From NCBI GenBank assembly GCA_964508045.1, contig CAZDSO010000002.1:1-58818 (forward strand): a stretch of DNA of 58,818 nt, given 5' to 3'. The position numbers were made by a program, and so were the translations under genes. This DNA is from an uncultured Planctomycetia bacterium (lineage in GTDB: Bacteria > Planctomycetota > JAKEIC01 > CAZDSO01). Positions within the stretch are counted from its first letter, which is position 1, and each line of letters starts with the position of its first letter. Shown here in pieces: positions 1-58,818 of the stretch. The notes beneath the pieces are model-generated. The model was not told the origin of the DNA. It saw nothing but the letters and a program-made list of their open reading frames with translations, and searched no databases.

Positions 1-203
1 GAAACGAGGAGGGCCTCGTGGATCTCGCGAACGGAAGGATCCTCTTCTCGGCGAGGTCCCTGGAACAGGTCACCGTCCAGGAGACGGAAAACCCCATGAA
101 CCGCCAGGTGCGAAAGACCAAGGTCACCTTCAAGATCGAGGCGGAAATCGAGCACGCCCCCGGCATCGTCCGCGAACGCGCGGAGGAGGAGGACGGGGAG
201 TAG
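1..203 (+). CDS. 3' end of an unidentified protein-coding gene, open at the window edge
   Basis: The frame is open from base 3 to TAG at 201-203. G/C third-position bias matches the neighbouring genes. No motif recognised. Confidence 0.45.
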   Translation, partial: NEEGLVDLANGRILFSARSLEQVTVQETENPMNRQVRKTKVTFKIEAEIEHAPGIVRERAEEEDGE

Positions 204-208
204 GTCTC

Positions 209-228
209 CGCCGCCCTCCCCGGCGGCG
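209..228 (+). terminator. Weak intrinsic-terminator-like hairpin after the first partial gene
   Basis: CGCCGCC-ctcccc-GGCGGCG forms a 7-bp GC stem 6 nt after the stop and is followed by acTTccTT. The T-tract is poor. Confidence 0.3.
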
Positions 229-388
229 ACTTCCTTGCGGCGCGAGCGGCCCGGTCCTTCGTATTGCTTGACGCCCCGCTGTCGTTTACCATGCCCGGGG
301 CCCCGGGAGACCCGAGCAGGTCGGCCGGAAGGGGAACCGGCGCAAGGGGCGCCCTCGTTTCCCCGTCGGCCCGGCTTCAGGAGGAGCC

Positions 389-2815
389 ATGTGCGCCAAA
401 GGCCTGGACGCCGGGGAAGGTTTCATCGTCGGCGCGGACCGGCGCGGGGGAGAGGTGGTCTACACGCCGGAGCGCACGACCTACCTGAAGATCCCCTCCG
501 GCGACGAAGCCGAGCGGCAGATCACCTCGCTGGGCCTGTACACGCTCAAGATCGGCTCGGCGCGTTTCGTGTTCGGCGAGGACGCCATCCGGATCGCGCG
601 CACCCTCAAGAGAACGGACCAGCTTCGCTCGCCCTTCCGTCAGGGCCTTCCCGGCAACGATGAGAGGAAGCTCCTCTCCACCATCCTCTCCGCCGTGCTG
701 GGCGCCCCCGGCGAACGGGGCGAGACGGTCGCCTACACCGTCCACGGGGCGCCGATGGACGGCCAGCTCGACATCGCGGGCATCGCGAAGTTCTGGAGCG
801 AGCTTCTCGCCGGCTTCGGGTACCGGCCGGTCACGGTGGGGCGCGCCGAGGCGGCCCTGGCCGGCGAGTTCTGGCGGCGGCGGGACGCCGCGACGGCCGG
901 GGCGGCCCTCAGCATCGTCTTCGGGGAGATGGCCGTCGACATCTGCGCCCGGGACCGCCGCAAGACGATCCAGTTCAGCCTGCTCAGGGGAAGCGACTGG
1001 ATCGACGCGTCCGTGGCGAAGATGAAGGAGGTCCCCGTCGACCGGGTCCGGCACCTCCGGGAGGCGTCGCTGGACCTCACTCGCGTGGACCTCTCCCATC
1101 CCCTGCAGGCGGCGCTGGAGATCTACTTCGAGCACCAGATCCACTACACGCTGCAGCAGGTGGTGGCCCAGATCATGAAAAGCCGCTGGGAACCCGAGGG
1201 CCCGGTGCGGATGGTGGTGTCGGGCAGCTGCGTGCGGATCCCCGGTTTTCCGGCCAAGCTGGAAAAGGGCTTCAAGAAGGTGAAGATGCCCTTCCCGCTG
1301 GAGAAGGTGTTCGTCTCGCGGGAGCCGCTCCAGATGGCGGCGGCGGGCGCCCTCGTCCGGGCCCTGGAGGGGGCGGAGAAGGGCGCAAGCAGGGCGGCGC
1401 CCGCCCCGCCGGGCGCCGGGCGCTCACCCGTCTCCTCCAAGGGGCGGATCTCCGACATCTTCAAGACCGCCACGACGAAGTTCGCGGCGCGGGGCGCCGT
1501 CTCCCCCCCGGCCCCGGGGCAGCCCTCTCAGCCGGCCGCGGAGCCGTCTCCGGCCGCCCCCTCGGAGGACGCGTCCGCCGCCTTCAAGGAGAGGTTGAAG
1601 CGGCTGGAGGGCCGGATCGCCGAGCTGGAGGAGGAGGTCCTCGGGGAGGACCCCTCCTACGTGGAGGCCATGCGCCAGGCCGCGGGGATCGCGGGCGGGG
1701 GTCGCAAGGCGCGCGAGCAGGACTACCGCCCCTTTTTCGAGCTCATGGTGGAAAAGGGGGCGTCGGACCTGTTCCTGTCGGCGGGGGCGCGTCCGGCCAT
1801 GCGGGTGGACGGTCGCGTGGAGTTCATCTCGGGGAACACGCTCAACCAGGCGTTCTGCGTCGGTCTCGCCGAGGCCCTGTCGGGAAAGGCCTACGACGCG
1901 CTCTTCCGCAAGTGCAAGGGCGTGGATCTGGCGATCGAGCTGGAGGACATCGGGCGCTTCCGCGCCAATTTCTTCCACCAGCGCGGCCGCATGGGGGGGG
2001 TGTTCCGCTACATCAAGGAGCGCGTCCCCACGTTCGAGGAACTCAACCTGCCCGGGCGGACGCTGATGAAGATCTCGGCGCACCAGCGGGGCCTCGTGCT
2101 GGTGACGGGCGTGGCGGGCAGCGGAAAATCCACGACGATCGCGGGCATGCTCGAACACATCAACCAGACCTCGAACCGGCACATCGTCACCATCGAGGAC
2201 CCCATCGAGTTCGTCTTCTCCGAGAAACAGAGCGTGATCGACCAGCGGGAGGTGGGCCTGGACACGGACAACTTCATGACGGCCCTGAAATCGGCCGTCC
2301 GCCAGTCGCCGGACGTGATCTTCGTCGGGGAGATGCGCGACAAGGAAACCATGGAAGCCGCCATCTCCGCCGCCGAGACCGGCCACCTCGTCATGTCCAC
2401 CCTCCACACCGTGAACGCCCAGCAGACCGTGGAGAGGATCATCACCTACTTCCCCCCCTACCAGCACAACCTCATCCGCCTGCAGCTCTCCATGGTCCTG
2501 GTCGGCGTGCTCTCCGTGAGGCTCCTGCCCAAGAAGGGCGGCCAGGGACGCGTCCCCGCCCTCGAGATCATGCTCTCCACCCCCACCGTGAAGGACCTCC
2601 TGCTGACCGGGAAGACCAAGTCGCTCGACGCCGCCATCTCGGAGGACGTCCACTACGGCAACCAGACCTTCAACGAGTCGCTGAAGCAGCTCTACCAGGC
2701 CGGCGTGATCGACCTCGAGGAAGCGCTCTCCGCCGCGGACAACCCCGACGAATTCAAGCTTCAGGTCCGCGGCATCGTCCGCGGCGCCCGGGCTTCCGAC
2801 TTCAACTTCCAGTAG
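389..2815 (+). CDS. Fusion protein: N-terminal actin-fold (ParM/PilM/MreB-like) domain, coiled-coil linker, C-terminal PilT/PilU-type hexameric ATPase
   Basis: AGGAGG lies a few nt upstream of ATG 389. The N-terminal ~330 aa carry GLDAGEGFIV (phosphate-1-like), SIVFGEMAVDI (degenerate phosphate-2) and VVSGSCVRIPGF (adenosine-motif-like). A Pro/Ala-rich linker and FKERLKRLEGRIAELEEEV follow. The C-terminal ~360 aa carry Walker A GVAGSGKST, Asp box IVTIEDPIEF, Walker B DVIFVGEMRD and His box GHLVMSTLHT. Confidence 0.85.
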   Translation: MCAKGLDAGEGFIVGADRRGGEVVYTPERTTYLKIPSGDEAERQITSLGLYTLKIGSARFVFGEDAIRIARTLKRTDQLRSPFRQGLPGNDERKLLSTILSAVLGAPGERGETVAYTVHGAPMDGQLDIAGIAKFWSELLAGFGYRPVTVGRAEAALAGEFWRRRDAATAGAALSIVFGEMAVDICARDRRKTIQFSLLRGSDWIDASVAKMKEVPVDRVRHLREASLDLTRVDLSHPLQAALEIYFEHQIHYTLQQVVAQIMKSRWEPEGPVRMVVSGSCVRIPGFPAKLEKGFKKVKMPFPLEKVFVSREPLQMAAAGALVRALEGAEKGASRAAPAPPGAGRSPVSSKGRISDIFKTATTKFAARGAVSPPAPGQPSQPAAEPSPAAPSEDASAAFKERLKRLEGRIAELEEEVLGEDPSYVEAMRQAAGIAGGGRKAREQDYRPFFELMVEKGASDLFLSAGARPAMRVDGRVEFISGNTLNQAFCVGLAEALSGKAYDALFRKCKGVDLAIELEDIGRFRANFFHQRGRMGGVFRYIKERVPTFEELNLPGRTLMKISAHQRGLVLVTGVAGSGKSTTIAGMLEHINQTSNRHIVTIEDPIEFVFSEKQSVIDQREVGLDTDNFMTALKSAVRQSPDVIFVGEMRDKETMEAAISAAETGHLVMSTLHTVNAQQTVERIITYFPPYQHNLIRLQLSMVLVGVLSVRLLPKKGGQGRVPALEIMLSTPTVKDLLLTGKTKSLDAAISEDVHYGNQTFNESLKQLYQAGVIDLEEALSAADNPDEFKLQVRGIVRGARASDFNFQ

Positions 2816-2826
2816 CGTATGCCCCG

Positions 2827-4911
2827 ATGGCGAGACCGATCCCGGCGTGCAGCCTCCTTGCGGTCCTGGCCGCCCTCCTGGCGGCCCCGTCCCCCGCCCC
2901 CGCCGGGGAACAGAAAGACTCCCCCGCCGTCCGTTGCGAGGTCTTTCCCTCCGCCCTCCTCTCCTCCGCCTACTGGGGCCCCCTGCTCGTGGAAGCCCGG
3001 AACGACTCCCCACGCGCCGCGGACATCGACGTCGGTGCGATCACCGCGCAGGGCATCGATCCCGAAGCCCTCGACCTGGAACAGGCCTCCGCGAGCACGC
3101 GTTTCCGCGTGGCGGGCGACGCCGAGAAGCGCCTGTTCCTCTACCTCCCCCCCTTCTCGAGAAGCGATCCCATCGTGATGCGGGCGGCGGACGGGAAAAC
3201 CCTGTCTCCCCACCAGAGGGTCTTCCTCCACCCCAACCCCGGCTGGAAAGCCGTCCTTCTCCTCTCCGACGACGAGACCTGCGAGGCCGCCACCGTCCTC
3301 GAGAACCTCCTCAACGCCTGCACGGCCCCTCCGGCGAGCCTCCCCGAGCGCGCGGAAGGATTCGACGCCTTCCACACCGTCGTCCTTCACCGGCTGGATC
3401 CCGCGGCCCTGAGCCGCGCTTCCCGGCGCGCGATCCGGGACTGGACCGCGCGGGGGGGCCATCTCGTCCTCTCCCCCGGAGACGACGTCCTCCTCTTCCT
3501 GGACGGGATCCTGGCCGAGATCCACCCCTTCACCCCCGTGGACACCCTCCCGGACCACCCCGTCACCGCCTTCGGGGCGCTCGAACCCGGCGCCGCCCCG
3601 CCCCGGGAACCCCTCCACCTGCTCGAAGGGGGCGAGCCGCTTCTGAAAAGCCGGCGCGGCGAGGTCGTGGCCCGCTGGTCCCCCGCCGGCGCAGGAAGCG
3701 TCCTCGCCCTCTCCGCGAGCCTGGACCTCCTCGGCTCCCGCTCGACCGCCGGCCGGATCTGGTTCCTCCGCCGCGTCCTCTTCGCGGGAGGCATGATCGA
3801 AGCGCTGGACCACCACGGAGTGTGCCGCGAGACCCCGCTGCAGCAAGAATTCCTGGCCTCCGCGGCAACCGGACCGACGTCCGGGGAGGGGCTCCGGCTT
3901 TCCACCGGACGCCGGGCCGGCCGCCCCCACCTGATGCCTCCCTTCCGCCATTACTTCTCCAGCATCTTCGCCGGCGTCGAGAGAGACGTCACCGCCTTCG
4001 AGGAGAAAGAGGTCCTGCTGGCGCTGATGGAGGACCTGGCCTCCGCGCCGAGCCTCGGATTCGTCGCCCTTTTCCTGCTCGCCTTCCTCGCCGTGGTCGG
4101 ACCCCTCAACTTCCTCGTCTTGCGCCGGAAGCGAATCCCGGCGCTCGCTTCCGTCACCGTTCCGCTCGTCTCGACGGCGTTCGTCTTCCTCGTCGTCGTC
4201 TCGGGACTGGTCATCCGGGGCGGCCCCCGCGCGAGACGCCTGAACGTGGTGTTCACCCGATCCGGCGAATCGTGGGCCGTGGCGAATTCCCTGATCTCCT
4301 TCAGGACCGGCGCCGAGGGGACGTACGCACTGTCGAGCCCGGACGGGGCCTTCCATCTTCCCCCCGTGCCCTTCTGGACCAAAGCGTTCCGCCTGGAACA
4401 GGACGGCGCCGGACGTCTCACCCTCCCCCTGGACCGGTGGGACCTGGCGGGCGCCACCGCCGAGAGGACGATCCGGCTGGAGGGCGCCGTGGAGGCGTTC
4501 CTGGACGATGAAGGGTTCCACGTGCGGAACAGACTCCCGCTCTCCCTTCGAGGGCTCGTGATGACGCCGCCCCCGGATTGCCCGCTGGAGATCGCGGCCG
4601 CCTTCACGGCCGAGGACCGGGAGGGGACCTTCGCGTTCGGATTCGAGGTCGCGCCGGGCGCCTCGCTCGATTTTCTCTCGCCGCCCCCCCCGGCCCGGGC
4701 GCCCGCGCGGGAGGACCTCGTTCTGGCGAGCCTGTTGGACCACGCCCTCGGCCAGTCCTTTCCGACGTGGGGCGGGGGCGGTCTGGCCTGCTGGATCGAC
4801 GTCCCCTTTCCGGAGTTTCACGTGGACGGGGAGCCGATGGAACTGATGTCCGACCGGACGGCCCTGGTCATCCCCCTGCTGGATCGCAGGAAAGGGGGCG
4901 CCGGGGGATGA
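2827..4911 (+). CDS. Large secreted/membrane protein of unknown function (signal peptide plus internal TM helices)
   Basis: An in-frame ATG sits 11 nt after the upstream stop. Signal peptide is MARPIPACSLLAVLAALLAAPSPAPA. Hydrophobic helices are LGFVALFLLAFLAVVGPLNFLVL and ALASVTVPLVSTAFVFLVVVSGLVI. The segment FHTVVLHRLDPAALSRASRRAIRDWTARGGHLVLSPG resembles amidotransferase-like/DUF4350-type auxiliary proteins (recollection only). The upstream part of track ORF 1912..4911 is a shadow frame over the PilT-like gene. Confidence 0.7.
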   Translation: MARPIPACSLLAVLAALLAAPSPAPAGEQKDSPAVRCEVFPSALLSSAYWGPLLVEARNDSPRAADIDVGAITAQGIDPEALDLEQASASTRFRVAGDAEKRLFLYLPPFSRSDPIVMRAADGKTLSPHQRVFLHPNPGWKAVLLLSDDETCEAATVLENLLNACTAPPASLPERAEGFDAFHTVVLHRLDPAALSRASRRAIRDWTARGGHLVLSPGDDVLLFLDGILAEIHPFTPVDTLPDHPVTAFGALEPGAAPPREPLHLLEGGEPLLKSRRGEVVARWSPAGAGSVLALSASLDLLGSRSTAGRIWFLRRVLFAGGMIEALDHHGVCRETPLQQEFLASAATGPTSGEGLRLSTGRRAGRPHLMPPFRHYFSSIFAGVERDVTAFEEKEVLLALMEDLASAPSLGFVALFLLAFLAVVGPLNFLVLRRKRIPALASVTVPLVSTAFVFLVVVSGLVIRGGPRARRLNVVFTRSGESWAVANSLISFRTGAEGTYALSSPDGAFHLPPVPFWTKAFRLEQDGAGRLTLPLDRWDLAGATAERTIRLEGAVEAFLDDEGFHVRNRLPLSLRGLVMTPPPDCPLEIAAAFTAEDREGTFAFGFEVAPGASLDFLSPPPPARAPAREDLVLASLLDHALGQSFPTWGGGGLACWIDVPFPEFHVDGEPMELMSDRTALVIPLLDRRKGGAGG

Positions 4912-4965
4912 GGGATGGGGGAGGGGGGAGGGGGAATCGCGGATTCGCAGCGTGAGAGAACGCGC

Positions 4966-5892
4966 ATGATCGACATCGAGGGACTGGTGATGGATTTCGG
5001 CGCCAACCGGGCGCTGGACGGGATCTCCTTCACGGTGGAGGCGGGGGACATCTTCGGGTTCATCGGCCCGAACGGCGCCGGGAAGACGACGACCATGCGG
5101 ATCCTGGCCACGCTGCTCCATCCCACGGCCGGGAGGGCGCGGGTGGGGGGGCATTGCGTGGTGAACGCCCCCGAGAAGGTCCGCGCCCTCACCGGGACCA
5201 TGCCGGACACCTACGGGGTCTACGACGGATTGAGCGTGTGGGAGTACCTGGATTTCTTCGGGGCGGCGCACGGCCTCCGGCTTCCGGGCCGGAACCGGGC
5301 CGTCTCCGACGTGATGGCGCTGACGGACCTCGGGGCGTTCGCGGACCGCCCCGTCTCCGCGCTGTCGCGGGGCATGCAGCAGAGGCTCTGCGTGGCCAAG
5401 ACGCTGGTGCACGATCCCGCGGTGCTGATCCTCGACGAGCCGGCGGCCAACCTCGATCCCCGGGCCCGGATCGAGTTCCGGGCGCTGCTCAAGGAGCTCA
5501 AGACGCTGGGGAAGACCATCCTGATCTCGTCCCACATCCTCACCGAGCTCTCGGACGTGTGCACGCGGATCGGGATCATCGAGGCGGGGCGCATGGTGGC
5601 CACGGGCACGCGGGCCGAGATCCTGGAGCGGATCGCGGGAGCGCCGCAGGTGGTCGTGGAGGTGAGGGACCGGGCTGCGGAGGCGGCGCGTCTGGCGCTG
5701 GAGCTGCCTTTCGTGCGCGAGGCGACGGCCGGGGGGGACCGGATCCGGGTGGATTGCGAGGGGCCGGATCCAAACGTGCCGGCGCTGGTCAGGACGCTCG
5801 CGGAGGCGGGGGTCCCGATCCAGGGCGTGCGGATGGAGTCGGCGGACCTGGAGCATCTGTTTCTCGAGATCACGAAGGGGCAGGTGCAGTGA
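4966..5892 (+). CDS. ABC transporter ATP-binding protein (ABC-2/NosF/GldA-like)
   Basis: Walker A GPNGAGKTT, signature LSRGMQQRL, Walker B VLILDEPAANLD and H-loop SSHIL are present. The start is probably ATG 4966 (MIDIEGL...); ATG 4915 is the alternative. Confidence 0.9.
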   Translation: MIDIEGLVMDFGANRALDGISFTVEAGDIFGFIGPNGAGKTTTMRILATLLHPTAGRARVGGHCVVNAPEKVRALTGTMPDTYGVYDGLSVWEYLDFFGAAHGLRLPGRNRAVSDVMALTDLGAFADRPVSALSRGMQQRLCVAKTLVHDPAVLILDEPAANLDPRARIEFRALLKELKTLGKTILISSHILTELSDVCTRIGIIEAGRMVATGTRAEILERIAGAPQVVVEVRDRAAEAARLALELPFVREATAGGDRIRVDCEGPDPNVPALVRTLAEAGVPIQGVRMESADLEHLFLEITKGQVQ

Positions 5893-5902
5893 TGCGGCGC
5901 CT

Positions 5903-7645
5903 TTGATGCGGATGCATGATGCCCTGGAGGGGAAGGCCGGGATGAGCGGCGTGCTCGAAAAGACGCGGACGGCCCTGGACGGGTGGCTGGATCCGATCCT
6001 GATGAAGGAGCTCCGCGCCACGTTCCGGGGCTGGAAATTCTTCGGCGTGCACACGGGCTTTCTGGCCCTGCTTTCCGTGGCGCTGGTGGTGGTGATCCTC
6101 TCGATGTCGACGGCGGTCCGCTGGCAGCCGGCGTCGGTGGGCCGCACGGTCCACGCGGTGTTCCTGGGGGGGATGGCGCTGGCGATCCTGCTGGTGCTTC
6201 CCTCCTTCGCCTCCACCTCCATCGTGGGGGAGCGGGAGGTGAAGACCTTCGAGATGCTCCAGACGACGCAGCTGAGCGCGGCGGGGGTGGTGCGGGGCAA
6301 GTTCCTGGCGTCCATGGTCTACACGGCGGTGTTCCTCTTCTCATCGCTTCCCGTCGGCGCGATCGCCTTCCTCTACGGCGGCATCGGCGTGGGGAACCTC
6401 GTGGCGTCCTACGCGTGCCTTCTGGCGGTGTCGGCGATCTCGAACATCTTCTCCATCTTCATCTCGGCGCATTCGCGCACGAGCCGGACGGCGCTGGCGA
6501 GCACCGGCGCCTTCGGCATCGTCTGCCTGGTGGGGCTCGCCGGATACCTGGCCGCGCTTCCCTCGGAGGCCCTGAGCCGGAAGGCGATGAACCTTATCGG
6601 TCTGCAAGCGCTCGCCTTCCGCCCGTTTCCCACCGCGGATCCACCCGCGACGGATGCGCTGCTCTACCTCTTCGCGCTTCCCCTGTTCGTGATGGGTTCG
6701 ATCTTCGCCTTTTCCGCCCTCTCGGCGTCCAACCGCATCAAACCCCGCGCCGGCAACCGCTCCACGAACCTGAAACTGTTCTTCCTGGCGTTCATGATTC
6801 TCGGATCGGCTCTCTGGCTGCTCCTCCTCTTCCGGGCGGACTTCGGCCCCCCCTGGTCGCGCTGGCGCGCGGCCGCGACCTTTCTCGGCGCCTTCGGCAT
6901 CGTCGCCACCCTTTCCTCCTCCTTCGCCGCCGAAGATCCCCTGCACGCGCTCCCCGCCCGGCTGCGCGGCGGGACCCGCTTCTCCCCGCTCCGCTGCCTT
7001 CGGCCCGGGGCCCAGAACGGCTTTTTCTTCTGCCTCCTGCTCGCGATCCTGGCCGCCACCCCCGCCCTCCTTCTCCTGCGGACCTACATGCAGAGCGCCG
7101 GCGTCTCGTTCGTGCCCGCGCTCGTCGGGATGGGCCTGACGATCCTCTCCTTCCTCCTCCTCTCCGCCTCCGCCGGGCTCCTCCTGACCACGCTGATCCT
7201 CAACGAGCGGGCGCGCATGGTCGTCCAGTCGGGCATCGTCACCGCCCTCATCTTCCTTCCCCTGATCGCGTTCGCCGCGCGCCACCGCCTGGAGAAGATC
7301 TCCGAGGTGTCCCTGCTCGAACCGGGCCTCCTGAGCCCCGCCGTCGCGTTCGGATCGCTGACCACGGGGTTCTTCGAGTACATCACGGACGAACAGATAT
7401 GGAGGGGGGAATCCGCCTTTCCCTACTCGGCGGCGCTCGGGGAAGTCCGCCTGCCGGCCTTCCTCCTCACGGTGGGCATCCACCTGGCGCTCGGCCTGGC
7501 GCTGTGGATCGCGGCCGAGAGACGCCTGGCCAGGGCCGCCAAGCAGGCGCCCCCGCCCGCCGGCGACCCGCCGCCGCCCGCCGGCGACCCGCCGCCGGAG
7601 CCGGACGCGCTGGCCGCCGCTGAATGGTGCCGCGGACATGGGTGA
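5903..7645 (+). CDS. ABC-2 type transporter permease, polytopic, with a Pro-rich C-terminal tail
   Basis: The gene follows the ATPase after a 10-nt gap and has many hydrophobic segments. The N-terminal LDPILMKELRATFRGWKFF is typical of ABC-2 permeases. Possible starts are TTG 5903, ATG 5906 or ATG 5942 (the last has GGAGG upstream). The tail reads PPPAGDPPPPAGDPPPEPD. Confidence 0.75.
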   Translation: MMRMHDALEGKAGMSGVLEKTRTALDGWLDPILMKELRATFRGWKFFGVHTGFLALLSVALVVVILSMSTAVRWQPASVGRTVHAVFLGGMALAILLVLPSFASTSIVGEREVKTFEMLQTTQLSAAGVVRGKFLASMVYTAVFLFSSLPVGAIAFLYGGIGVGNLVASYACLLAVSAISNIFSIFISAHSRTSRTALASTGAFGIVCLVGLAGYLAALPSEALSRKAMNLIGLQALAFRPFPTADPPATDALLYLFALPLFVMGSIFAFSALSASNRIKPRAGNRSTNLKLFFLAFMILGSALWLLLLFRADFGPPWSRWRAAATFLGAFGIVATLSSSFAAEDPLHALPARLRGGTRFSPLRCLRPGAQNGFFFCLLLAILAATPALLLLRTYMQSAGVSFVPALVGMGLTILSFLLLSASAGLLLTTLILNERARMVVQSGIVTALIFLPLIAFAARHRLEKISEVSLLEPGLLSPAVAFGSLTTGFFEYITDEQIWRGESAFPYSAALGEVRLPAFLLTVGIHLALGLALWIAAERRLARAAKQAPPPAGDPPPPAGDPPPEPDALAAAEWCRGHG

Positions 7646-7689
7646 TCGCGAAAAGGGAGATCCATGCGCGCGGGAAGGGGAGGGGGTAT

Positions 7690-7773
7690 GGGCGACCCCG
7701 TGTGGTCGCCCCCTCCGTGCCGGGACGAGGGCGGGCCCATGGGCCCGCCCCTACCCCGCCGTCGCGGCGGTTT
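7690..7773. terminator. Cluster of GC-rich hairpins between the convergent ABC-2 permease and lipoprotein A genes (probable bidirectional terminator region)
   Basis: GGGCGACC-ccgtgt-GGTCGCCC at 7690..7711. A 22-nt perfect palindrome GGGCGGGCCCATGGGCCCGCCC at 7729..7750. CCGCC-gtcgc-GGCGG followed by TTT at 7756..7773. Mirror copy at 51046..51129. Confidence 0.45.
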
Positions 7774-7801
7774 GGCGTTGCTCCGGGATGAAACCCTCGC
7801 C

Positions 7802-8614
7802 TTACTTCCGCCTGGCAACCTCCTTCATGAGGAGTTTGAACGCATTCTCCGGGATCCTCGCGGCCTCGGGCAGGGCGGTGTCCCTGGTGATCGTCCTGGC
7901 GTAGTGTACGCAGGAATGGACGAGGTCTTCCTGCACGTCGTAGATGGTTCCGATGACGCGGCATCTCACCGTGCCGGCGGTGGGGCCAGGTCCATATCCC
8001 CAGATATAGAGGGCGTAGAGGTGCCGCGGTTCAAAGTACAAAGACATCTTCTCCTCGATCAAAACAACCAGCTTGGCCAGGGAGGCTGGAACCTTCTCGA
8101 TGCCCTTGCCGCACGGATCCGTTGCCAGCTCGAAGGACCCGTGTGCGTCGATGCAGTGATAGGCCCCGTACGCGAGCTCGCGGGCCATCCCTCCAAGGCC
8201 GGAGGATTCGAACAAGGGCTTGAGGGGCACCAAGGAGATACCGGTACTCCTGAATGCCATGATGTTGCCTGCCGTCAGTCCGGCGGAGAATTCGGTCTCG
8301 TTGATACCTATGCTGGCGAAGCCGTATGCGACCACGGGAAGAAGAAACACTTTTTCCTTGTCGAGATCGATGCGTTCCGCCCCCTCGCGGACGAACACTT
8401 TTTTTCGGGCTCTCTTCTCATTGCCCTCGGTTTCAGGTTGATCTTCATCCCTTACTTTCCCCTCCTCCTTCGGTTCGGCTTTTTCTTCCTGTTGCGGTCC
8501 ACCCTTCACGGCCTCCTCTCCGGGTTCCCCCAACGGGACCTTCCCGTCCCCGCAACCAGAAACCAGGGCGAAGAAGACCCAGACCGGCGCAGTAAGGACT
8601 ATGAGCCTCGACAT
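7802..8614 (-). CDS. Lipoprotein of unknown family (paralog A)
   Basis: Signal peptide plus lipobox LVSGC (Cys21), then an acidic/Lys-rich linker. The C-terminal ~190 aa align with the 10212..10928 product through shared blocks AYGF, NETE, GISL-P-KP, EKVP, ALY-W-YG and CRVI--IYD-Q--L-HSC-YY. Confidence 0.8.
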   Translation of the reverse strand: MSRLIVLTAPVWVFFALVSGCGDGKVPLGEPGEEAVKGGPQQEEKAEPKEEGKVRDEDQPETEGNEKRARKKVFVREGAERIDLDKEKVFLLPVVAYGFASIGINETEFSAGLTAGNIMAFRSTGISLVPLKPLFESSGLGGMARELAYGAYHCIDAHGSFELATDPCGKGIEKVPASLAKLVVLIEEKMSLYFEPRHLYALYIWGYGPGPTAGTVRCRVIGTIYDVQEDLVHSCVHYARTITRDTALPEAARIPENAFKLLMKEVARRK

Positions 8615-8677
8615 GTTTCCCTCATCGAAAGGTCCGTATCAAAATACACGAATACATGCATCCCCATTTACCATTTA

Positions 8678-10098: not shown

Positions 10099-10211
10099 GG
10101 TTTCCTCCCTGGAGGGGAAAAGGAAAGGAGCGGGACCCGTGGGGGCCCCGCTCCTGTCGGTTCGGTCTTCAAGGGTGCGGTGCCGGGCCGCACGCGCTGA
10201 GCCGAGGGAGG

Positions 10212-10928: not shown

Positions 10929-11101
10929 GGTTTCCTCCTTAAATCCTTTCCTCTCTTGAAAACATCTGGCCCATGCCGGCCACGTGCCGCCTGGGCCCGA
11001 AGAGCGAGGGAGGCCCGGCCCTCCCCTCTTTTCTTCCTCGGTGACTCGTCGCGTGGAGAGGATTGTCTTCCACGACGCGCGAAGTTTTCACCGATCGTGG
11101 A

Positions 11102-11130: not shown

Positions 11131-11158
11131 GGAATAGGAGATTTTTTTTTCGGAGGGA

Positions 11159-12433: not shown

Positions 12434-12443
12434 GACGGTCTCC

Positions 12444-46375: not shown

Positions 46376-46385
46376 GGAGACCGTC

Positions 46386-47660: not shown

Positions 47661-47890
47661 TCCCTCCGAAAAAAAAATCTCCTATTCCTTGACTTCCCGG
47701 GGGGCGGAGCGTATCTTTCCACGATCGGTGAAAACTTCGCGCGTCGTGGAAGACAATCCTCTCCACGCGACGAGTCACCGAGGAAGAAAAGAGGGGAGGG
47801 CCGGGCCTCCCTCGCTCTTCGGGCCCAGGCGGCACGTGGCCGGCATGGGCCAGATGTTTTCAAGAGAGGAAAGGATTTAAGGAGGAAACC

Positions 47891-48607: not shown

Positions 48608-48720
48608 CCTCCCTCGGCTCAGCGCGTGCGGCCCGGCACCGCACCCTTGAAGACCGAACCGACAGGAGCGGGGCCCCCACGGGTCCCGCTCCTTTCCTTT
48701 TCCCCTCCAGGGAGGAAACC

Positions 48721-50141: not shown

Positions 50142-50204
50142 TAAATGGTAAATGGGGATGCATGTATTCGTGTATTTTGATACGGACCTTTCGATGAGGG
50201 AAAC

Positions 50205-51017: not shown

Positions 51018-51173
51018 GGCGAGGGTTTCATCCCGGAGCAACGCCAAACCGCCGCGACGGCGGGGTAGGGGCGGGCCCATGGGCCCGCCCTCGTCCCGGC
51101 ACGGAGGGGGCGACCACACGGGGTCGCCCATACCCCCTCCCCTTCCCGCGCGCATGGATCTCCCTTTTCGCGA

Positions 51174-52916
51174 TCACCCATGTCCGCGGCACCATTCAGC
51201 GGCGGCCAGCGCGTCCGGCTCCGGCGGCGGGTCGCCGGCGGGCGGCGGCGGGTCGCCGGCGGGCGGGGGCGCCTGCTTGGCGGCCCTGGCCAGGCGTCTC
51301 TCGGCCGCGATCCACAGCGCCAGGCCGAGCGCCAGGTGGATGCCCACCGTGAGGAGGAAGGCCGGCAGGCGGACTTCCCCGAGCGCCGCCGAGTAGGGAA
51401 AGGCGGATTCCCCCCTCCATATCTGTTCGTCCGTGATGTACTCGAAGAACCCCGTGGTCAGCGATCCGAACGCGACGGCGGGGCTCAGGAGGCCCGGTTC
51501 GAGCAGGGACACCTCGGAGATCTTCTCCAGGCGGTGGCGCGCGGCGAACGCGATCAGGGGAAGGAAGATGAGGGCGGTGACGATGCCCGACTGGACGACC
51601 ATGCGCGCCCGCTCGTTGAGGATCAGCGTGGTCAGGAGGAGCCCGGCGGAGGCGGAGAGGAGGAGGAAGGAGAGGATCGTCAGGCCCATCCCGACGAGCG
51701 CGGGCACGAACGAGACGCCGGCGCTCTGCATGTAGGTCCGCAGGAGAAGGAGGGCGGGGGTGGCGGCCAGGATCGCGAGCAGGAGGCAGAAGAAAAAGCC
51801 GTTCTGGGCCCCGGGCCGAAGGCAGCGGAGCGGGGAGAAGCGGGTCCCGCCGCGCAGCCGGGCGGGGAGCGCGTGCAGGGGATCTTCGGCGGCGAAGGAG
51901 GAGGAAAGGGTGGCGACGATGCCGAAGGCGCCGAGAAAGGTCGCGGCCGCGCGCCAGCGCGACCAGGGGGGGCCGAAGTCCGCCCGGAAGAGGAGGAGCA
52001 GCCAGAGAGCCGATCCGAGAATCATGAACGCCAGGAAGAACAGTTTCAGGTTCGTGGAGCGGTTGCCGGCGCGGGGTTTGATGCGGTTGGACGCCGAGAG
52101 GGCGGAAAAGGCGAAGATCGAACCCATCACGAACAGGGGAAGCGCGAAGAGGTAGAGCAGCGCATCCGTCGCGGGTGGATCCGCGGTGGGAAACGGGCGG
52201 AAGGCGAGCGCTTGCAGACCGATAAGGTTCATCGCCTTCCGGCTCAGGGCCTCCGAGGGAAGCGCGGCCAGGTATCCGGCGAGCCCCACCAGGCAGACGA
52301 TGCCGAAGGCGCCGGTGCTCGCCAGCGCCGTCCGGCTCGTGCGCGAATGCGCCGAGATGAAGATGGAGAAGATGTTCGAGATCGCCGACACCGCCAGAAG
52401 GCACGCGTAGGACGCCACGAGGTTCCCCACGCCGATGCCGCCGTAGAGGAAGGCGATCGCGCCGACGGGAAGCGATGAGAAGAGGAACACCGCCGTGTAG
52501 ACCATGGACGCCAGGAACTTGCCCCGCACCACCCCCGCCGCGCTCAGCTGCGTCGTCTGGAGCATCTCGAAGGTCTTCACCTCCCGCTCCCCCACGATGG
52601 AGGTGGAGGCGAAGGAGGGAAGCACCAGCAGGATCGCCAGCGCCATCCCCCCCAGGAACACCGCGTGGACCGTGCGGCCCACCGACGCCGGCTGCCAGCG
52701 GACCGCCGTCGACATCGAGAGGATCACCACCACCAGCGCCACGGAAAGCAGGGCCAGAAAGCCCGTGTGCACGCCGAAGAATTTCCAGCCCCGGAACGTG
52801 GCGCGGAGCTCCTTCATCAGGATCGGATCCAGCCACCCGTCCAGGGCCGTCCGCGTCTTTTCGAGCACGCCGCTCATCCCGGCCTTCCCCTCCAGGGCAT
52901 CATGCATCCGCATCAA
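51174..52916 (-). CDS. ABC-2 permease (mirror copy)
   Basis: Mirror of 5903..7645; identical protein. Confidence 0.75.
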   Translation of the reverse strand: MMRMHDALEGKAGMSGVLEKTRTALDGWLDPILMKELRATFRGWKFFGVHTGFLALLSVALVVVILSMSTAVRWQPASVGRTVHAVFLGGMALAILLVLPSFASTSIVGEREVKTFEMLQTTQLSAAGVVRGKFLASMVYTAVFLFSSLPVGAIAFLYGGIGVGNLVASYACLLAVSAISNIFSIFISAHSRTSRTALASTGAFGIVCLVGLAGYLAALPSEALSRKAMNLIGLQALAFRPFPTADPPATDALLYLFALPLFVMGSIFAFSALSASNRIKPRAGNRSTNLKLFFLAFMILGSALWLLLLFRADFGPPWSRWRAAATFLGAFGIVATLSSSFAAEDPLHALPARLRGGTRFSPLRCLRPGAQNGFFFCLLLAILAATPALLLLRTYMQSAGVSFVPALVGMGLTILSFLLLSASAGLLLTTLILNERARMVVQSGIVTALIFLPLIAFAARHRLEKISEVSLLEPGLLSPAVAFGSLTTGFFEYITDEQIWRGESAFPYSAALGEVRLPAFLLTVGIHLALGLALWIAAERRLARAAKQAPPPAGDPPPPAGDPPPEPDALAAAEWCRGHG

Positions 52917-52926
52917 AGGCGCCGCA

Positions 52927-53853
52927 TCACTGCACCTGCCCCTTCGTGATCTCGAGAAACAGATGCTCCAGGTCCGCCGACTCCATCCGCACGCCCTGGA
53001 TCGGGACCCCCGCCTCCGCGAGCGTCCTGACCAGCGCCGGCACGTTTGGATCCGGCCCCTCGCAATCCACCCGGATCCGGTCCCCCCCGGCCGTCGCCTC
53101 GCGCACGAAAGGCAGCTCCAGCGCCAGACGCGCCGCCTCCGCAGCCCGGTCCCTCACCTCCACGACCACCTGCGGCGCTCCCGCGATCCGCTCCAGGATC
53201 TCGGCCCGCGTGCCCGTGGCCACCATGCGCCCCGCCTCGATGATCCCGATCCGCGTGCACACGTCCGAGAGCTCGGTGAGGATGTGGGACGAGATCAGGA
53301 TGGTCTTCCCCAGCGTCTTGAGCTCCTTGAGCAGCGCCCGGAACTCGATCCGGGCCCGGGGATCGAGGTTGGCCGCCGGCTCGTCGAGGATCAGCACCGC
53401 GGGATCGTGCACCAGCGTCTTGGCCACGCAGAGCCTCTGCTGCATGCCCCGCGACAGCGCGGAGACGGGGCGGTCCGCGAACGCCCCGAGGTCCGTCAGC
53501 GCCATCACGTCGGAGACGGCCCGGTTCCGGCCCGGAAGCCGGAGGCCGTGCGCCGCCCCGAAGAAATCCAGGTACTCCCACACGCTCAATCCGTCGTAGA
53601 CCCCGTAGGTGTCCGGCATGGTCCCGGTGAGGGCGCGGACCTTCTCGGGGGCGTTCACCACGCAATGCCCCCCCACCCGCGCCCTCCCGGCCGTGGGATG
53701 GAGCAGCGTGGCCAGGATCCGCATGGTCGTCGTCTTCCCGGCGCCGTTCGGGCCGATGAACCCGAAGATGTCCCCCGCCTCCACCGTGAAGGAGATCCCG
53801 TCCAGCGCCCGGTTGGCGCCGAAATCCATCACCAGTCCCTCGATGTCGATCAT
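52927..53853 (-). CDS. ABC transporter ATP-binding protein (mirror copy)
   Basis: Mirror of 4966..5892. Confidence 0.9.
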   Translation of the reverse strand: MIDIEGLVMDFGANRALDGISFTVEAGDIFGFIGPNGAGKTTTMRILATLLHPTAGRARVGGHCVVNAPEKVRALTGTMPDTYGVYDGLSVWEYLDFFGAAHGLRLPGRNRAVSDVMALTDLGAFADRPVSALSRGMQQRLCVAKTLVHDPAVLILDEPAANLDPRARIEFRALLKELKTLGKTILISSHILTELSDVCTRIGIIEAGRMVATGTRAEILERIAGAPQVVVEVRDRAAEAARLALELPFVREATAGGDRIRVDCEGPDPNVPALVRTLAEAGVPIQGVRMESADLEHLFLEITKGQVQ

Positions 53854-53907
53854 GCGCGTTCTCTCACGCTGCGAATCCGCGATTCCCCCTCCCCCCTCCC
53901 CCATCCC

Positions 53908-55992
53908 TCATCCCCCGGCGCCCCCTTTCCTGCGATCCAGCAGGGGGATGACCAGGGCCGTCCGGTCGGACATCAGTTCCATCGGCTCCCCGTCCACGTG
54001 AAACTCCGGAAAGGGGACGTCGATCCAGCAGGCCAGACCGCCCCCGCCCCACGTCGGAAAGGACTGGCCGAGGGCGTGGTCCAACAGGCTCGCCAGAACG
54101 AGGTCCTCCCGCGCGGGCGCCCGGGCCGGGGGGGGCGGCGAGAGAAAATCGAGCGAGGCGCCCGGCGCGACCTCGAATCCGAACGCGAAGGTCCCCTCCC
54201 GGTCCTCGGCCGTGAAGGCGGCCGCGATCTCCAGCGGGCAATCCGGGGGCGGCGTCATCACGAGCCCTCGAAGGGAGAGCGGGAGTCTGTTCCGCACGTG
54301 GAACCCTTCATCGTCCAGGAACGCCTCCACGGCGCCCTCCAGCCGGATCGTCCTCTCGGCGGTGGCGCCCGCCAGGTCCCACCGGTCCAGGGGGAGGGTG
54401 AGACGTCCGGCGCCGTCCTGTTCCAGGCGGAACGCTTTGGTCCAGAAGGGCACGGGGGGAAGATGGAAGGCCCCGTCCGGGCTCGACAGTGCGTACGTCC
54501 CCTCGGCGCCGGTCCTGAAGGAGATCAGGGAATTCGCCACGGCCCACGATTCGCCGGATCGGGTGAACACCACGTTCAGGCGTCTCGCGCGGGGGCCGCC
54601 CCGGATGACCAGTCCCGAGACGACGACGAGGAAGACGAACGCCGTCGAGACGAGCGGAACGGTGACGGAAGCGAGCGCCGGGATTCGCTTCCGGCGCAAG
54701 ACGAGGAAGTTGAGGGGTCCGACCACGGCGAGGAAGGCGAGCAGGAAAAGGGCGACGAATCCGAGGCTCGGCGCGGAGGCCAGGTCCTCCATCAGCGCCA
54801 GCAGGACCTCTTTCTCCTCGAAGGCGGTGACGTCTCTCTCGACGCCGGCGAAGATGCTGGAGAAGTAATGGCGGAAGGGAGGCATCAGGTGGGGGCGGCC
54901 GGCCCGGCGTCCGGTGGAAAGCCGGAGCCCCTCCCCGGACGTCGGTCCGGTTGCCGCGGAGGCCAGGAATTCTTGCTGCAGCGGGGTCTCGCGGCACACT
55001 CCGTGGTGGTCCAGCGCTTCGATCATGCCTCCCGCGAAGAGGACGCGGCGGAGGAACCAGATCCGGCCGGCGGTCGAGCGGGAGCCGAGGAGGTCCAGGC
55101 TCGCGGAGAGGGCGAGGACGCTTCCTGCGCCGGCGGGGGACCAGCGGGCCACGACCTCGCCGCGCCGGCTTTTCAGAAGCGGCTCGCCCCCTTCGAGCAG
55201 GTGGAGGGGTTCCCGGGGCGGGGCGGCGCCGGGTTCGAGCGCCCCGAAGGCGGTGACGGGGTGGTCCGGGAGGGTGTCCACGGGGGTGAAGGGGTGGATC
55301 TCGGCCAGGATCCCGTCCAGGAAGAGGAGGACGTCGTCTCCGGGGGAGAGGACGAGATGGCCCCCCCGCGCGGTCCAGTCCCGGATCGCGCGCCGGGAAG
55401 CGCGGCTCAGGGCCGCGGGATCCAGCCGGTGAAGGACGACGGTGTGGAAGGCGTCGAATCCTTCCGCGCGCTCGGGGAGGCTCGCCGGAGGGGCCGTGCA
55501 GGCGTTGAGGAGGTTCTCGAGGACGGTGGCGGCCTCGCAGGTCTCGTCGTCGGAGAGGAGAAGGACGGCTTTCCAGCCGGGGTTGGGGTGGAGGAAGACC
55601 CTCTGGTGGGGAGACAGGGTTTTCCCGTCCGCCGCCCGCATCACGATGGGATCGCTTCTCGAGAAGGGGGGGAGGTAGAGGAACAGGCGCTTCTCGGCGT
55701 CGCCCGCCACGCGGAAACGCGTGCTCGCGGAGGCCTGTTCCAGGTCGAGGGCTTCGGGATCGATGCCCTGCGCGGTGATCGCACCGACGTCGATGTCCGC
55801 GGCGCGTGGGGAGTCGTTCCGGGCTTCCACGAGCAGGGGGCCCCAGTAGGCGGAGGAGAGGAGGGCGGAGGGAAAGACCTCGCAACGGACGGCGGGGGAG
55901 TCTTTCTGTTCCCCGGCGGGGGCGGGGGACGGGGCCGCCAGGAGGGCGGCCAGGACCGCAAGGAGGCTGCACGCCGGGATCGGTCTCGCCAT
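53908..55992 (-). CDS. Large signal-peptide membrane protein (mirror copy)
   Basis: Mirror of 2827..4911. Confidence 0.7.
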   Translation of the reverse strand: MARPIPACSLLAVLAALLAAPSPAPAGEQKDSPAVRCEVFPSALLSSAYWGPLLVEARNDSPRAADIDVGAITAQGIDPEALDLEQASASTRFRVAGDAEKRLFLYLPPFSRSDPIVMRAADGKTLSPHQRVFLHPNPGWKAVLLLSDDETCEAATVLENLLNACTAPPASLPERAEGFDAFHTVVLHRLDPAALSRASRRAIRDWTARGGHLVLSPGDDVLLFLDGILAEIHPFTPVDTLPDHPVTAFGALEPGAAPPREPLHLLEGGEPLLKSRRGEVVARWSPAGAGSVLALSASLDLLGSRSTAGRIWFLRRVLFAGGMIEALDHHGVCRETPLQQEFLASAATGPTSGEGLRLSTGRRAGRPHLMPPFRHYFSSIFAGVERDVTAFEEKEVLLALMEDLASAPSLGFVALFLLAFLAVVGPLNFLVLRRKRIPALASVTVPLVSTAFVFLVVVSGLVIRGGPRARRLNVVFTRSGESWAVANSLISFRTGAEGTYALSSPDGAFHLPPVPFWTKAFRLEQDGAGRLTLPLDRWDLAGATAERTIRLEGAVEAFLDDEGFHVRNRLPLSLRGLVMTPPPDCPLEIAAAFTAEDREGTFAFGFEVAPGASLDFLSPPPPARAPAREDLVLASLLDHALGQSFPTWGGGGLACWIDVPFPEFHVDGEPMELMSDRTALVIPLLDRRKGGAGG

Positions 55993-56003
55993 CGGGGCAT
56001 ACG

Positions 56004-58430
56004 CTACTGGAAGTTGAAGTCGGAAGCCCGGGCGCCGCGGACGATGCCGCGGACCTGAAGCTTGAATTCGTCGGGGTTGTCCGCGGCGGAGAGCGCTTCC
56101 TCGAGGTCGATCACGCCGGCCTGGTAGAGCTGCTTCAGCGACTCGTTGAAGGTCTGGTTGCCGTAGTGGACGTCCTCCGAGATGGCGGCGTCGAGCGACT
56201 TGGTCTTCCCGGTCAGCAGGAGGTCCTTCACGGTGGGGGTGGAGAGCATGATCTCGAGGGCGGGGACGCGTCCCTGGCCGCCCTTCTTGGGCAGGAGCCT
56301 CACGGAGAGCACGCCGACCAGGACCATGGAGAGCTGCAGGCGGATGAGGTTGTGCTGGTAGGGGGGGAAGTAGGTGATGATCCTCTCCACGGTCTGCTGG
56401 GCGTTCACGGTGTGGAGGGTGGACATGACGAGGTGGCCGGTCTCGGCGGCGGAGATGGCGGCTTCCATGGTTTCCTTGTCGCGCATCTCCCCGACGAAGA
56501 TCACGTCCGGCGACTGGCGGACGGCCGATTTCAGGGCCGTCATGAAGTTGTCCGTGTCCAGGCCCACCTCCCGCTGGTCGATCACGCTCTGTTTCTCGGA
56601 GAAGACGAACTCGATGGGGTCCTCGATGGTGACGATGTGCCGGTTCGAGGTCTGGTTGATGTGTTCGAGCATGCCCGCGATCGTCGTGGATTTTCCGCTG
56701 CCCGCCACGCCCGTCACCAGCACGAGGCCCCGCTGGTGCGCCGAGATCTTCATCAGCGTCCGCCCGGGCAGGTTGAGTTCCTCGAACGTGGGGACGCGCT
56801 CCTTGATGTAGCGGAACACCCCCCCCATGCGGCCGCGCTGGTGGAAGAAATTGGCGCGGAAGCGCCCGATGTCCTCCAGCTCGATCGCCAGATCCACGCC
56901 CTTGCACTTGCGGAAGAGCGCGTCGTAGGCCTTTCCCGACAGGGCCTCGGCGAGACCGACGCAGAACGCCTGGTTGAGCGTGTTCCCCGAGATGAACTCC
57001 ACGCGACCGTCCACCCGCATGGCCGGACGCGCCCCCGCCGACAGGAACAGGTCCGACGCCCCCTTTTCCACCATGAGCTCGAAAAAGGGGCGGTAGTCCT
57101 GCTCGCGCGCCTTGCGACCCCCGCCCGCGATCCCCGCGGCCTGGCGCATGGCCTCCACGTAGGAGGGGTCCTCCCCGAGGACCTCCTCCTCCAGCTCGGC
57201 GATCCGGCCCTCCAGCCGCTTCAACCTCTCCTTGAAGGCGGCGGACGCGTCCTCCGAGGGGGCGGCCGGAGACGGCTCCGCGGCCGGCTGAGAGGGCTGC
57301 CCCGGGGCCGGGGGGGAGACGGCGCCCCGCGCCGCGAACTTCGTCGTGGCGGTCTTGAAGATGTCGGAGATCCGCCCCTTGGAGGAGACGGGTGAGCGCC
57401 CGGCGCCCGGCGGGGCGGGCGCCGCCCTGCTTGCGCCCTTCTCCGCCCCCTCCAGGGCCCGGACGAGGGCGCCCGCCGCCGCCATCTGGAGCGGCTCCCG
57501 CGAGACGAACACCTTCTCCAGCGGGAAGGGCATCTTCACCTTCTTGAAGCCCTTTTCCAGCTTGGCCGGAAAACCGGGGATCCGCACGCAGCTGCCCGAC
57601 ACCACCATCCGCACCGGGCCCTCGGGTTCCCAGCGGCTTTTCATGATCTGGGCCACCACCTGCTGCAGCGTGTAGTGGATCTGGTGCTCGAAGTAGATCT
57701 CCAGCGCCGCCTGCAGGGGATGGGAGAGGTCCACGCGAGTGAGGTCCAGCGACGCCTCCCGGAGGTGCCGGACCCGGTCGACGGGGACCTCCTTCATCTT
57801 CGCCACGGACGCGTCGATCCAGTCGCTTCCCCTGAGCAGGCTGAACTGGATCGTCTTGCGGCGGTCCCGGGCGCAGATGTCGACGGCCATCTCCCCGAAG
57901 ACGATGCTGAGGGCCGCCCCGGCCGTCGCGGCGTCCCGCCGCCGCCAGAACTCGCCGGCCAGGGCCGCCTCGGCGCGCCCCACCGTGACCGGCCGGTACC
58001 CGAAGCCGGCGAGAAGCTCGCTCCAGAACTTCGCGATGCCCGCGATGTCGAGCTGGCCGTCCATCGGCGCCCCGTGGACGGTGTAGGCGACCGTCTCGCC
58101 CCGTTCGCCGGGGGCGCCCAGCACGGCGGAGAGGATGGTGGAGAGGAGCTTCCTCTCATCGTTGCCGGGAAGGCCCTGACGGAAGGGCGAGCGAAGCTGG
58201 TCCGTTCTCTTGAGGGTGCGCGCGATCCGGATGGCGTCCTCGCCGAACACGAAACGCGCCGAGCCGATCTTGAGCGTGTACAGGCCCAGCGAGGTGATCT
58301 GCCGCTCGGCTTCGTCGCCGGAGGGGATCTTCAGGTAGGTCGTGCGCTCCGGCGTGTAGACCACCTCTCCCCCGCGCCGGTCCGCGCCGACGATGAAACC
58401 TTCCCCGGCGTCCAGGCCTTTGGCGCACAT
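56004..58430 (-). CDS. Actin-fold + PilT-type ATPase fusion (mirror copy)
   Basis: Mirror of 389..2815; identical protein. Confidence 0.85.
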   Translation of the reverse strand: MCAKGLDAGEGFIVGADRRGGEVVYTPERTTYLKIPSGDEAERQITSLGLYTLKIGSARFVFGEDAIRIARTLKRTDQLRSPFRQGLPGNDERKLLSTILSAVLGAPGERGETVAYTVHGAPMDGQLDIAGIAKFWSELLAGFGYRPVTVGRAEAALAGEFWRRRDAATAGAALSIVFGEMAVDICARDRRKTIQFSLLRGSDWIDASVAKMKEVPVDRVRHLREASLDLTRVDLSHPLQAALEIYFEHQIHYTLQQVVAQIMKSRWEPEGPVRMVVSGSCVRIPGFPAKLEKGFKKVKMPFPLEKVFVSREPLQMAAAGALVRALEGAEKGASRAAPAPPGAGRSPVSSKGRISDIFKTATTKFAARGAVSPPAPGQPSQPAAEPSPAAPSEDASAAFKERLKRLEGRIAELEEEVLGEDPSYVEAMRQAAGIAGGGRKAREQDYRPFFELMVEKGASDLFLSAGARPAMRVDGRVEFISGNTLNQAFCVGLAEALSGKAYDALFRKCKGVDLAIELEDIGRFRANFFHQRGRMGGVFRYIKERVPTFEELNLPGRTLMKISAHQRGLVLVTGVAGSGKSTTIAGMLEHINQTSNRHIVTIEDPIEFVFSEKQSVIDQREVGLDTDNFMTALKSAVRQSPDVIFVGEMRDKETMEAAISAAETGHLVMSTLHTVNAQQTVERIITYFPPYQHNLIRLQLSMVLVGVLSVRLLPKKGGQGRVPALEIMLSTPTVKDLLLTGKTKSLDAAISEDVHYGNQTFNESLKQLYQAGVIDLEEALSAADNPDEFKLQVRGIVRGARASDFNFQ

Positions 58431-58615
58431 GGCTCCTCCTGAAGCCGGGCCGACGGGGAAACGAGGGCGCCCCTTGCGCCGGTTCCCCTTCCGGCCGACC
58501 TGCTCGGGTCTCCCGGGGCCCCGGGCATGGTAAACGACAGCGGGGCGTCAAGCAATACGAAGGACCGGGCCGCTCGCGCCGCAAGGAAGTCGCCGCCGGG
58601 GAGGGCGGCGGAGAC

Positions 58616-58818
58616 CTACTCCCCGTCCTCCTCCTCCGCGCGTTCGCGGACGATGCCGGGGGCGTGCTCGATTTCCGCCTCGATCTTGAAGGTGACCTTG
58701 GTCTTTCGCACCTGGCGGTTCATGGGGTTTTCCGTCTCCTGGACGGTGACCTGTTCCAGGGACCTCGCCGAGAAGAGGATCCTTCCGTTCGCGAGATCCA
58801 CGAGGCCCTCCTCGTTTC
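58616..58818 (-). CDS. 3' end of unidentified gene (mirror copy, open at window edge)
   Basis: Mirror of 1..203. Confidence 0.45.
   Translation of the reverse strand, partial: NEEGLVDLANGRILFSARSLEQVTVQETENPMNRQVRKTKVTFKIEAEIEHAPGIVRERAEEEDGE

Follow-up and report, generated by a model that had tools for sequence, protein, structure and literature searches.

A perfect palindrome and the gene at its axis

The window analysed here is the whole 58,818-bp stretch of contig CAZDSO010000002.1 (assembly GCA_964508045.1), from an uncultured Planctomycetia bacterium, and it consists of a single palindrome whose two arms meet inside a gene for a UDP-sugar pyrophosphorylase (UDPGP, PF01704). Compared over its full length with its own reverse complement, the window shows 0 mismatches and contains no N; its base counts are G=C=20,093 and A=T=9,316, with a GC content of 68.3%. 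The axis lies between positions 29409 and 29410, without a spacer, and the two window ends are mutually reverse-complementary, that is, they represent the same genomic point. The features on which the argument turns are the following.

1..29409: left arm, real chromosomal sequence from an uncultured Planctomycetota bacterium; the window holds no other independent information
29410..58818: right arm, the exact reverse complement of 1-29409, with 0 mismatches
29400..29419: fold-back junction, reading CCGGGGCTTT up to the axis and AAAGCCCCGG after it, spacer-free and without microhomology to the native continuation
29265..29411, plus strand: 5' fragment of the UDPGP gene (PF01704), 48 codons, cut at the axis
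29408..29554, minus strand: mirror twin of the truncated UDPGP fragment, by symmetry
28123-29229, minus strand: rsgA, ribosome small-subunit GTPase (PF03193, E 1.4e-49), the last complete gene ahead of the axis; twin at 29590-30696, plus strand

In a wider context the centre of the window reads ...GGATCCGGGGCTTT on the left of the axis and AAAGCCCCGGATCC... on its right. The single TTTAAA of the entire window is created by the fold-back junction.

A sequence-only reading of this DNA had described a perfect, spacer-less palindrome of two 29,409-bp arms with mirrored open reading frames (ORFs), and our comparison agrees with it throughout. The twin ORFs 29234..29653 (plus) and 29166..29585 (minus) are present, with 28123..29229 (minus) and 29590..30696 (plus) as a further pair, and the ORF reported at 18..203 (plus) is the tail of a gene that enters at the left edge. 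As the arms are identical at all positions, the statement that every gene is counted twice and that 29.4 kb is independent information also stands. An exact inverted repeat of 29,409 bp cannot have arisen by chance. Nevertheless, if the assembler walked one graph path twice, the arms do not count as two independent observations, and the perfection of the repeat thus carries no biological weight.

The gene cut at the axis starts with an ATG at 29265, preceded by an AGGAGG Shine-Dalgarno motif at 29254-29259, and is divergent from rsgA. Its GC content at the third codon position is 0.84 in frame, and the fold point lies inside the coding sequence, after codon 48. The resulting 48-residue product reads MAEAERYERLFEGFKRAGQEHVFGGWGDLDGPRRKAFLDRLEGVDPGL, and its TAA stop codon is made by the fold-back itself (CTT, then T before the axis and AA after it). 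The native UDPGP protein is 467 residues long, with a full-length gene in contigs L001, L002, L004 and L005, and its homologues typically have 460-480 residues. That a conserved gene is interrupted at the axis, as had been proposed from the sequence, is thus borne out by the Shine-Dalgarno motif, the start codon, the coding composition and the 467-residue PF01704 protein of the native contigs.

We searched the surroundings of the axis for biological signals. Comparison of the window with native contigs shows no native inverted repeat or microhomology at the junction; the inverted repeats near the axis are imperfect and 8-18 nt long. Among these weak repeats is an 8-bp pair, GACGGTCC/GGACCGTC, which flanks the 12-bp palindrome GGAAGGCCTTCC and lies 24-57 nt inside the arm. 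Folding of the native DNA around the axis gives z = -0.25 against shuffled sequences. A hairpin-prone native structure was rejected as the cause, given these weak repeats alone and a fold energy no better than that of shuffles. Near the centre there are no matches to SMRTbell, ONT, Nextera or TruSeq adapters; TruSeq 13-mers with a single mismatch at 27854 and 30953 were set aside as a mirrored chance match within the HEAT-repeat gene.

The same ~100-bp stretch shows variation of its own. In contig L003 (JGI 3300029267) the UDPGP gene carries a 75-bp in-frame deletion, relative to window positions 29304-29378, which shortens the protein from 467 to 442 residues and takes out the conserved 'GQEHVF..W' segment, the local inverted repeat and the 12-bp palindrome. 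The deletion stops 31 nt short of the axis, and several contigs break within this stretch. One of them, Logan contig L008 (SRR14699967), ends at 29383, close to the right boundary of the deletion, which suggests, from the contig sequences, that the deleted and intact UDPGP alleles coexist in SRR14699967.

The chromosome continues through the axis in other assemblies

An identical RsgA protein is encoded on 11 public contigs. Five of these contigs, with which we compared the arm, come from independent assemblies, namely JGI 3300029258 (63.8 kb), ENA ERZ27256770 (63.5 kb), JGI 3300017987, Logan SRR14699969 and Logan SRR6963352. Four of the five are 100% identical to the arm as far as base 29409, and the fifth shows a single mismatch. 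Past this base the native contigs read TCGAGG... after ...GGGGCTTT or, equally, TCGAGGTGGT after CCGGGGCTTT. The window departs from the native sequence immediately past the axis (A instead of T), with a microhomology of 0 and an offset of 0. The native run past the axis, TCGAGGTGG..., or in its context ...GGGGCTTT followed by TCGAGGTGGTGGAAGG..., enters a complete 467-residue PF01704 gene (contigs L001, L002, L004, L005 and L006), and a Kelch-repeat protein and then further genes lie 3' of it. A sixth assembly, JGI 3300029267, has the same native continuation, bar the 75-bp in-frame deletion.

One of the comparisons places both ends of the arm within one record. They fall at positions 19066 (window position 1) and 48474 (the axis base) of the JGI contig Ga0309772_1000584 (63,811 bp), which span exactly 29,409 bp; the record runs on for 19,065 bp outside the outer end and for 15,337 bp past the axis. 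The stretches of this contig that were compared, window 1-12815 and 18123-29409, are 100% identical to the window. Logan contigs cover 11963-15611 and 15984-23762, also at 100% identity, and the independent sequences compared with the arm leave out 15612-15983 (372 bp).

These results show that the real chromosome passes straight through 29409 into an intact UDPGP gene. At the other end, the 340-residue DUF6263 gene, of which the window holds the tail, is complete in native contigs L009, L010 and L011 and is followed leftwards by TPR, radical SAM, PBP, Ser/Thr kinase, MutS and SNF2 genes. Judged from these sequences, nothing sets the palindrome's outer ends apart from those of an ordinary contig. 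The sequence-only reading had named a contig continuing the truncated gene past 29409 as evidence against a biological palindrome; such a continuation was found in five assemblies, which disfavours a biological palindrome, and its view that an artefact is most likely receives direct support from the same independent assemblies.

Breaks in the Logan contigs recur elsewhere in the arm, at 23827 in three runs and at 15611/15984 in several runs. The stretches concerned, 23763-23826 and 15612-15983, are probably intergenic sequence with strain-variable or repeated k-mers.

A probable second path at the axis base in run SRR6963311

One short-read contig stops at the fold point. The Logan contig SRR6963311_75956 (5,583 bp) has its end precisely at base 29409, and the 48-residue axis product is on record for no other contig. 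The partial product of the left window edge matches no recorded protein, and a search through UDPGP homologues gave cluster representatives but no partial products. Its sibling run SRR6963352 passes the axis natively. We simulated unitig construction at k=31, which we take to be the k-mer size used by Logan. With native k-mers alone, the unitig runs through the axis; with fold-back k-mers alone, it stops at +15 nt in an inverted self-loop; with native and fold-back k-mers together, it stops at exactly 29409 (+0). Since the simulation reproduces the observed stop only when both paths are present, SRR6963311 most probably holds the native path together with a second path that diverges at 29409, as expected from a fold-back junction. 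That coverage should run out at precisely this base is unlikely (~1e-4 to 1e-3).

A count of k-mers bears on how few molecules such a path requires. In one read centred on the junction, each canonical junction k-mer is counted twice (k = 21, 31, 55 and 141), and therefore a single chimeric molecule can pass a minimum-abundance filter of 2. That one read meets this threshold helps to explain how chimeras survive error filtering.

Origin of the fold-back

The palindrome almost certainly has its origin in sequencing or assembly and not in biology. Taken together, we consider the window a mis-assembled contig, in which a real segment of 29,409 bp is followed by the same path read backwards, and not a feature of the genome; we give this reading a probability of about 78%. 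One or a few chimeric fold-back DNA molecules would have formed in vitro. Possibly, a polymerase that reached the end of a sheared fragment, ...GGGGCTTT, turned onto the complementary strand; alternatively, the two strands of one fragment end may have been joined or read consecutively. Such molecules would leave the de Bruijn graph with a short, self-complementary hairpin edge, which could outlast a minimum-abundance filter of 2 through the double counting of its junction k-mers, once per strand, in each read. The assembler would then walk along the path, over the hairpin edge and through the same nodes in reverse. A path walked out and back in this way accounts for the identical arms, the missing spacer and the location of both contig ends at one genomic point.

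Most chimeras from multiple displacement amplification (MDA) are, in work by Lasken and Stockwell from 2007, said to be inverted joins. Several published assemblies contain comparable contigs. In SPAdes assemblies of M. bovis isolates, 81 whole-contig palindromes were described (PMC9455707), and exact mirror contigs are present in single-cell genome assemblies (bioRxiv 10.1101/2023.06.06.543983). In rnaSPAdes, a palindromic sequence can result when a chimeric 'double-strand hairpin' edge connects an edge with its reverse complement, and connections similar to such edges occur with MDA (10.1101/420208). Palindromic unitigs are reported whole by SPAdes and MEGAHIT and are split mid-way by other assemblers (PMC9528984). 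The window shares with these de Bruijn palindromes the exact self-reverse-complement, the mirrored genes and the featureless fold point (PMC9455707, 10.1101/420208, PMC9528984); at 58.8 kb it is presumably a large example.

Several points weigh against the mis-assembly of an in vitro fold-back. The junction, with zero offset and zero microhomology, is atypical for MDA template-switch chimeras, which usually have offset arms joined at short microhomology, and the exact chemistry of the fold-back in vitro is a guess. A real fold-back in a minority of cells would be expected to give an identical graph. The evidence consists of assembled contigs and a simulation, and we infer the link between the window and SRR6963311 from a coincidence of coordinates (roughly 1e-4 to 1e-3 by chance). 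The 40-nt fold-back junction was found 0 times in the collections metagenome_contigs, viral_contigs and genome_contigs; the native 40-mer used as a control is also absent from metagenome_contigs and viral_contigs, despite the JGI contigs that carry it, and so these scans of public collections carry no weight.

An artefact could also have been produced by another route, which we regard as a secondary possibility, well behind the first but well ahead of any biological origin. Either a long fold-back read seeded the contig (a nanopore read that runs through template and complement as if they were a single molecule, or a PacBio molecule whose hairpin adapter was missed or absent), or the contig was joined to its own reverse complement computationally, by an assembler, a scaffolder or post-processing without read support. 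Fold-back reads symmetric about the end of the molecule are a documented long-read artefact and make up 1-4% of genomic DNA reads, sometimes more (PMC12870357). A junction exactly at a fragment end, with neither offset nor microhomology, is what reading both strands of a duplex end would give, and the presence of the junction in short reads is suggested by an assembled contig. The window nevertheless differs from nanopore or PacBio fold-back reads in the lack of an adapter remnant or spacer at its centre and in its identical arms, as a consensus rarely gives two 29.4-kb arms with 0 differences, although both signs could have been hidden by polishing or trimming. In addition, the short-read contig of SRR6963311 ends at the axis base, a sign that the short-read k-mers include a diverging path. 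For these reasons the long-read route ranks lower than the fold-back in short-read libraries. A fold-back made in the graph alone would need a native palindrome of k-1 bases at the end of the path, whereas the native sequence diverges from the window at the first base.

The probable branch at 29409 in SRR6963311 is equally expected if a minority of cells carried a real inverted duplication, formed in vivo when a hairpin-capped break in the UDPGP gene, or a fusion of sister ends, was replicated; a giant spacer-less palindrome would then coexist with wild-type chromosomes in the population sampled in that run. A blunt, microhomology-free junction with zero offset fits a fusion of sister ends, and the large inverted duplication from a break point resembles the giant palindromes known in vivo, which arise from a break beside a short inverted repeat by snap-back and replication and are counter-selected by SbcCD. 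Those palindromes, however, have a short asymmetric centre and retain native sequence through the second repeat arm, whereas the window is perfect to the central base. The snap-back test, applied to the window, finds no spacer and a native sequence that departs from the window (T versus A) immediately past the axis, a pattern other than that of snap-back, and the folding of the native DNA described above likewise gives no hint of the usual short-inverted-repeat route. All other assemblies of the same strain (at most 1 mismatch) carry the native continuation. The duplication would cost the cell a conserved enzyme gene, and its chromosome would end up broken or dicentric-like. In bacteria, moreover, SbcCD cleavage and replication slippage make long perfect palindromes unstable. 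The absence of divergence between the arms is uninformative here, since an assembler would collapse them. We therefore hold this origin to be improbable; if it were true, the window would record, in a metagenome, a bacterial counterpart to the opening step of a breakage-fusion-bridge cycle, for which the odds are just as long.

Reading across the hairpin end of a linear replicon, or a replicated telomere junction, would also give a perfect palindrome without a spacer, and in this respect the window resembles the hairpin telomeres processed by Borrelia ResT, phage N15 TelN, phiKO2 TelK and Agrobacterium TelA. In the native contigs, by contrast, the replicon continues for more than 15 kb past the axis; since it does not end there, a hairpin telomere is refuted for the populations sampled. 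The axis also lies within a protein-coding gene and not in a non-coding telomere recognition sequence, and the surrounding content is chromosomal housekeeping. Scans of the arm found no resolvase, phage or plasmid genes, and none is listed in the precomputed Pfam annotations for ~20 kb of fetched native flank; both results are limited to these regions of the genome. Hairpin-ended replicons are not known from Planctomycetota. Of all the origins considered, this one has the smallest probability, close to nil.

The main consequence of a mis-assembled fold-back is one of data hygiene: all genes of the window are counted twice, with 29.4 kb of independent sequence. The contig would inflate the duplication and contamination estimates of its bin, could pass for a genome with inverted terminal repeats or for a linear hairpin replicon, and yields a spurious protein of 48 residues with a stop codon from the fold-back. 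No reads are needed to recognise such an artefact; one can check whether sibling assemblies run on beyond the axis. A real palindrome would be a notable gross chromosomal rearrangement in an uncultured bacterium, and no finding here favours it.

Gene content of the arm

Real genes in this GC-rich window were chosen by third-position GC and scanned against Pfam, NCBIfam and PHROGs. Apart from rsgA and the truncated UDPGP gene, the arm contains the following.

3-203, plus strand: 3' end of a DUF6263 gene that is truncated at the edge of the window; its twin lies at 58616-58816, minus strand
389-2815, plus strand: volactin-like/PilT fusion protein; mirror copy at 56004-58430, minus strand
2827-4911, plus strand: 694-residue protein, function unassigned
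4915-5892 and 5903-7645, plus strand: GldA-like and GldF-like ABC transporter pair
8678-9358, minus strand: Ham1/RdgB
9355-10098, minus strand: RNase PH
11159-12433, minus strand: ClpX
12444-13070 and about 13161-13766, minus strand: two ClpP genes
13886-15448, minus strand: trigger factor
15707-17089, plus strand: TatD plus radical-SAM protein
17144-18253, minus strand: M50 protease
within 18229-19353, plus strand: D,D-carboxypeptidase
21181-22749, minus strand: amidohydrolase
22765-23202, minus strand: PIN toxin, with an RHH partner gene upstream
23986-28113, plus strand: HEAT-repeat protein, 1,375 residues

The arm is ordinary chromosomal housekeeping sequence, unremarkable apart from a few gene-level curiosities. 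Scans of the arm for tRNAs and Rfam families gave no match, and among the arm ORFs scanned there is no transposase, integrase, telomere resolvase or phage-like gene. The closest named relatives of ClpX are metagenome-assembled genomes (MAGs) with identities of at most 76%, which points to Planctomycetota. Among GTDB species representatives, the best RsgA match is 33% identical, giving no close relative and no usable synteny.

The protein encoded at 389-2815 (808 residues) combines an N-terminal volactin-like actin-fold domain (PF25216, residues 3-325, E 4.6e-37) with a complete PilT/PilU-type ATPase (TIGR01420, residues 451-788, 417 bits versus a cut-off of 319). A linker of ~120 residues, rich in Pro/Ala and charged residues, separates the two parts. 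By sequence, no PDB entry is related to the N-terminal half. This fusion is also present in P0244, a protein of another lineage (801 residues, 54% identical, both domains), and in P0241 (56%), a partial protein from a Planctomycetota MAG. An exhaustive search returned 404 volactin-like representatives, the majority of them stand-alone proteins of ~330 residues; among the rest are fusions to a Ser/Thr kinase, ParA/Wzz, a ParB-type HTH domain or coiled coils. A predicted actin-like filament domain and a pilus-retraction-type motor ATPase in one protein may merit a study of its own.

Directly 3' of this gene, the 694-residue protein has a weak match to DUF4350 (GldG-like) alone. It is followed by the GldA-like ABC ATPase (TIGR03522, E 6.5e-61, under the cut-off) and by a 580-residue ABC-2 permease with a weak match to GldF. 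The plus-strand genes at 2827-7645 and the volactin/PilT gene may, from their arrangement, form one operon, which would tie the fusion to a gliding-type ABC transporter.

The gene at 15707-17089 encodes a TatD-family nuclease and a radical-SAM domain (TIGR00010 and TIGR04038) in one polypeptide of 460 residues, whereas NCBIfam describes TIGR04038, the 'TatD family nuclease-associated radical SAM protein', as one of two linked partners. The HEAT-repeat gene (23986-28113) is split in contig L004 (JGI 3300017987) into ORFs of 573 and 737 residues, the aligned part differing from the window by a single mismatch; either the gene is disrupted in that strain or the assembly is in error.

The tandem clpP paralogues are ~76% identical over 300 nt (direct repeat D1) and lie between clpX (downstream) and the trigger-factor gene (upstream); the ClpP version with the 208-residue start has a match in the public record look-up. 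A 731-residue 'ClpX' match (P0002) was considered as a second chimera of the same organism and rejected, as it comes from an unrelated scaffold and is 64% identical. In that scaffold, L020 (ENA ERZ28654779 scaffold_328), the gene at 573-2768 encodes the 731-residue protein with internal direct duplications of ClpX segments, and the adjoining L28 and M50 genes each occur twice. From its sequence, L020 looks like a further mis-assembled public scaffold.

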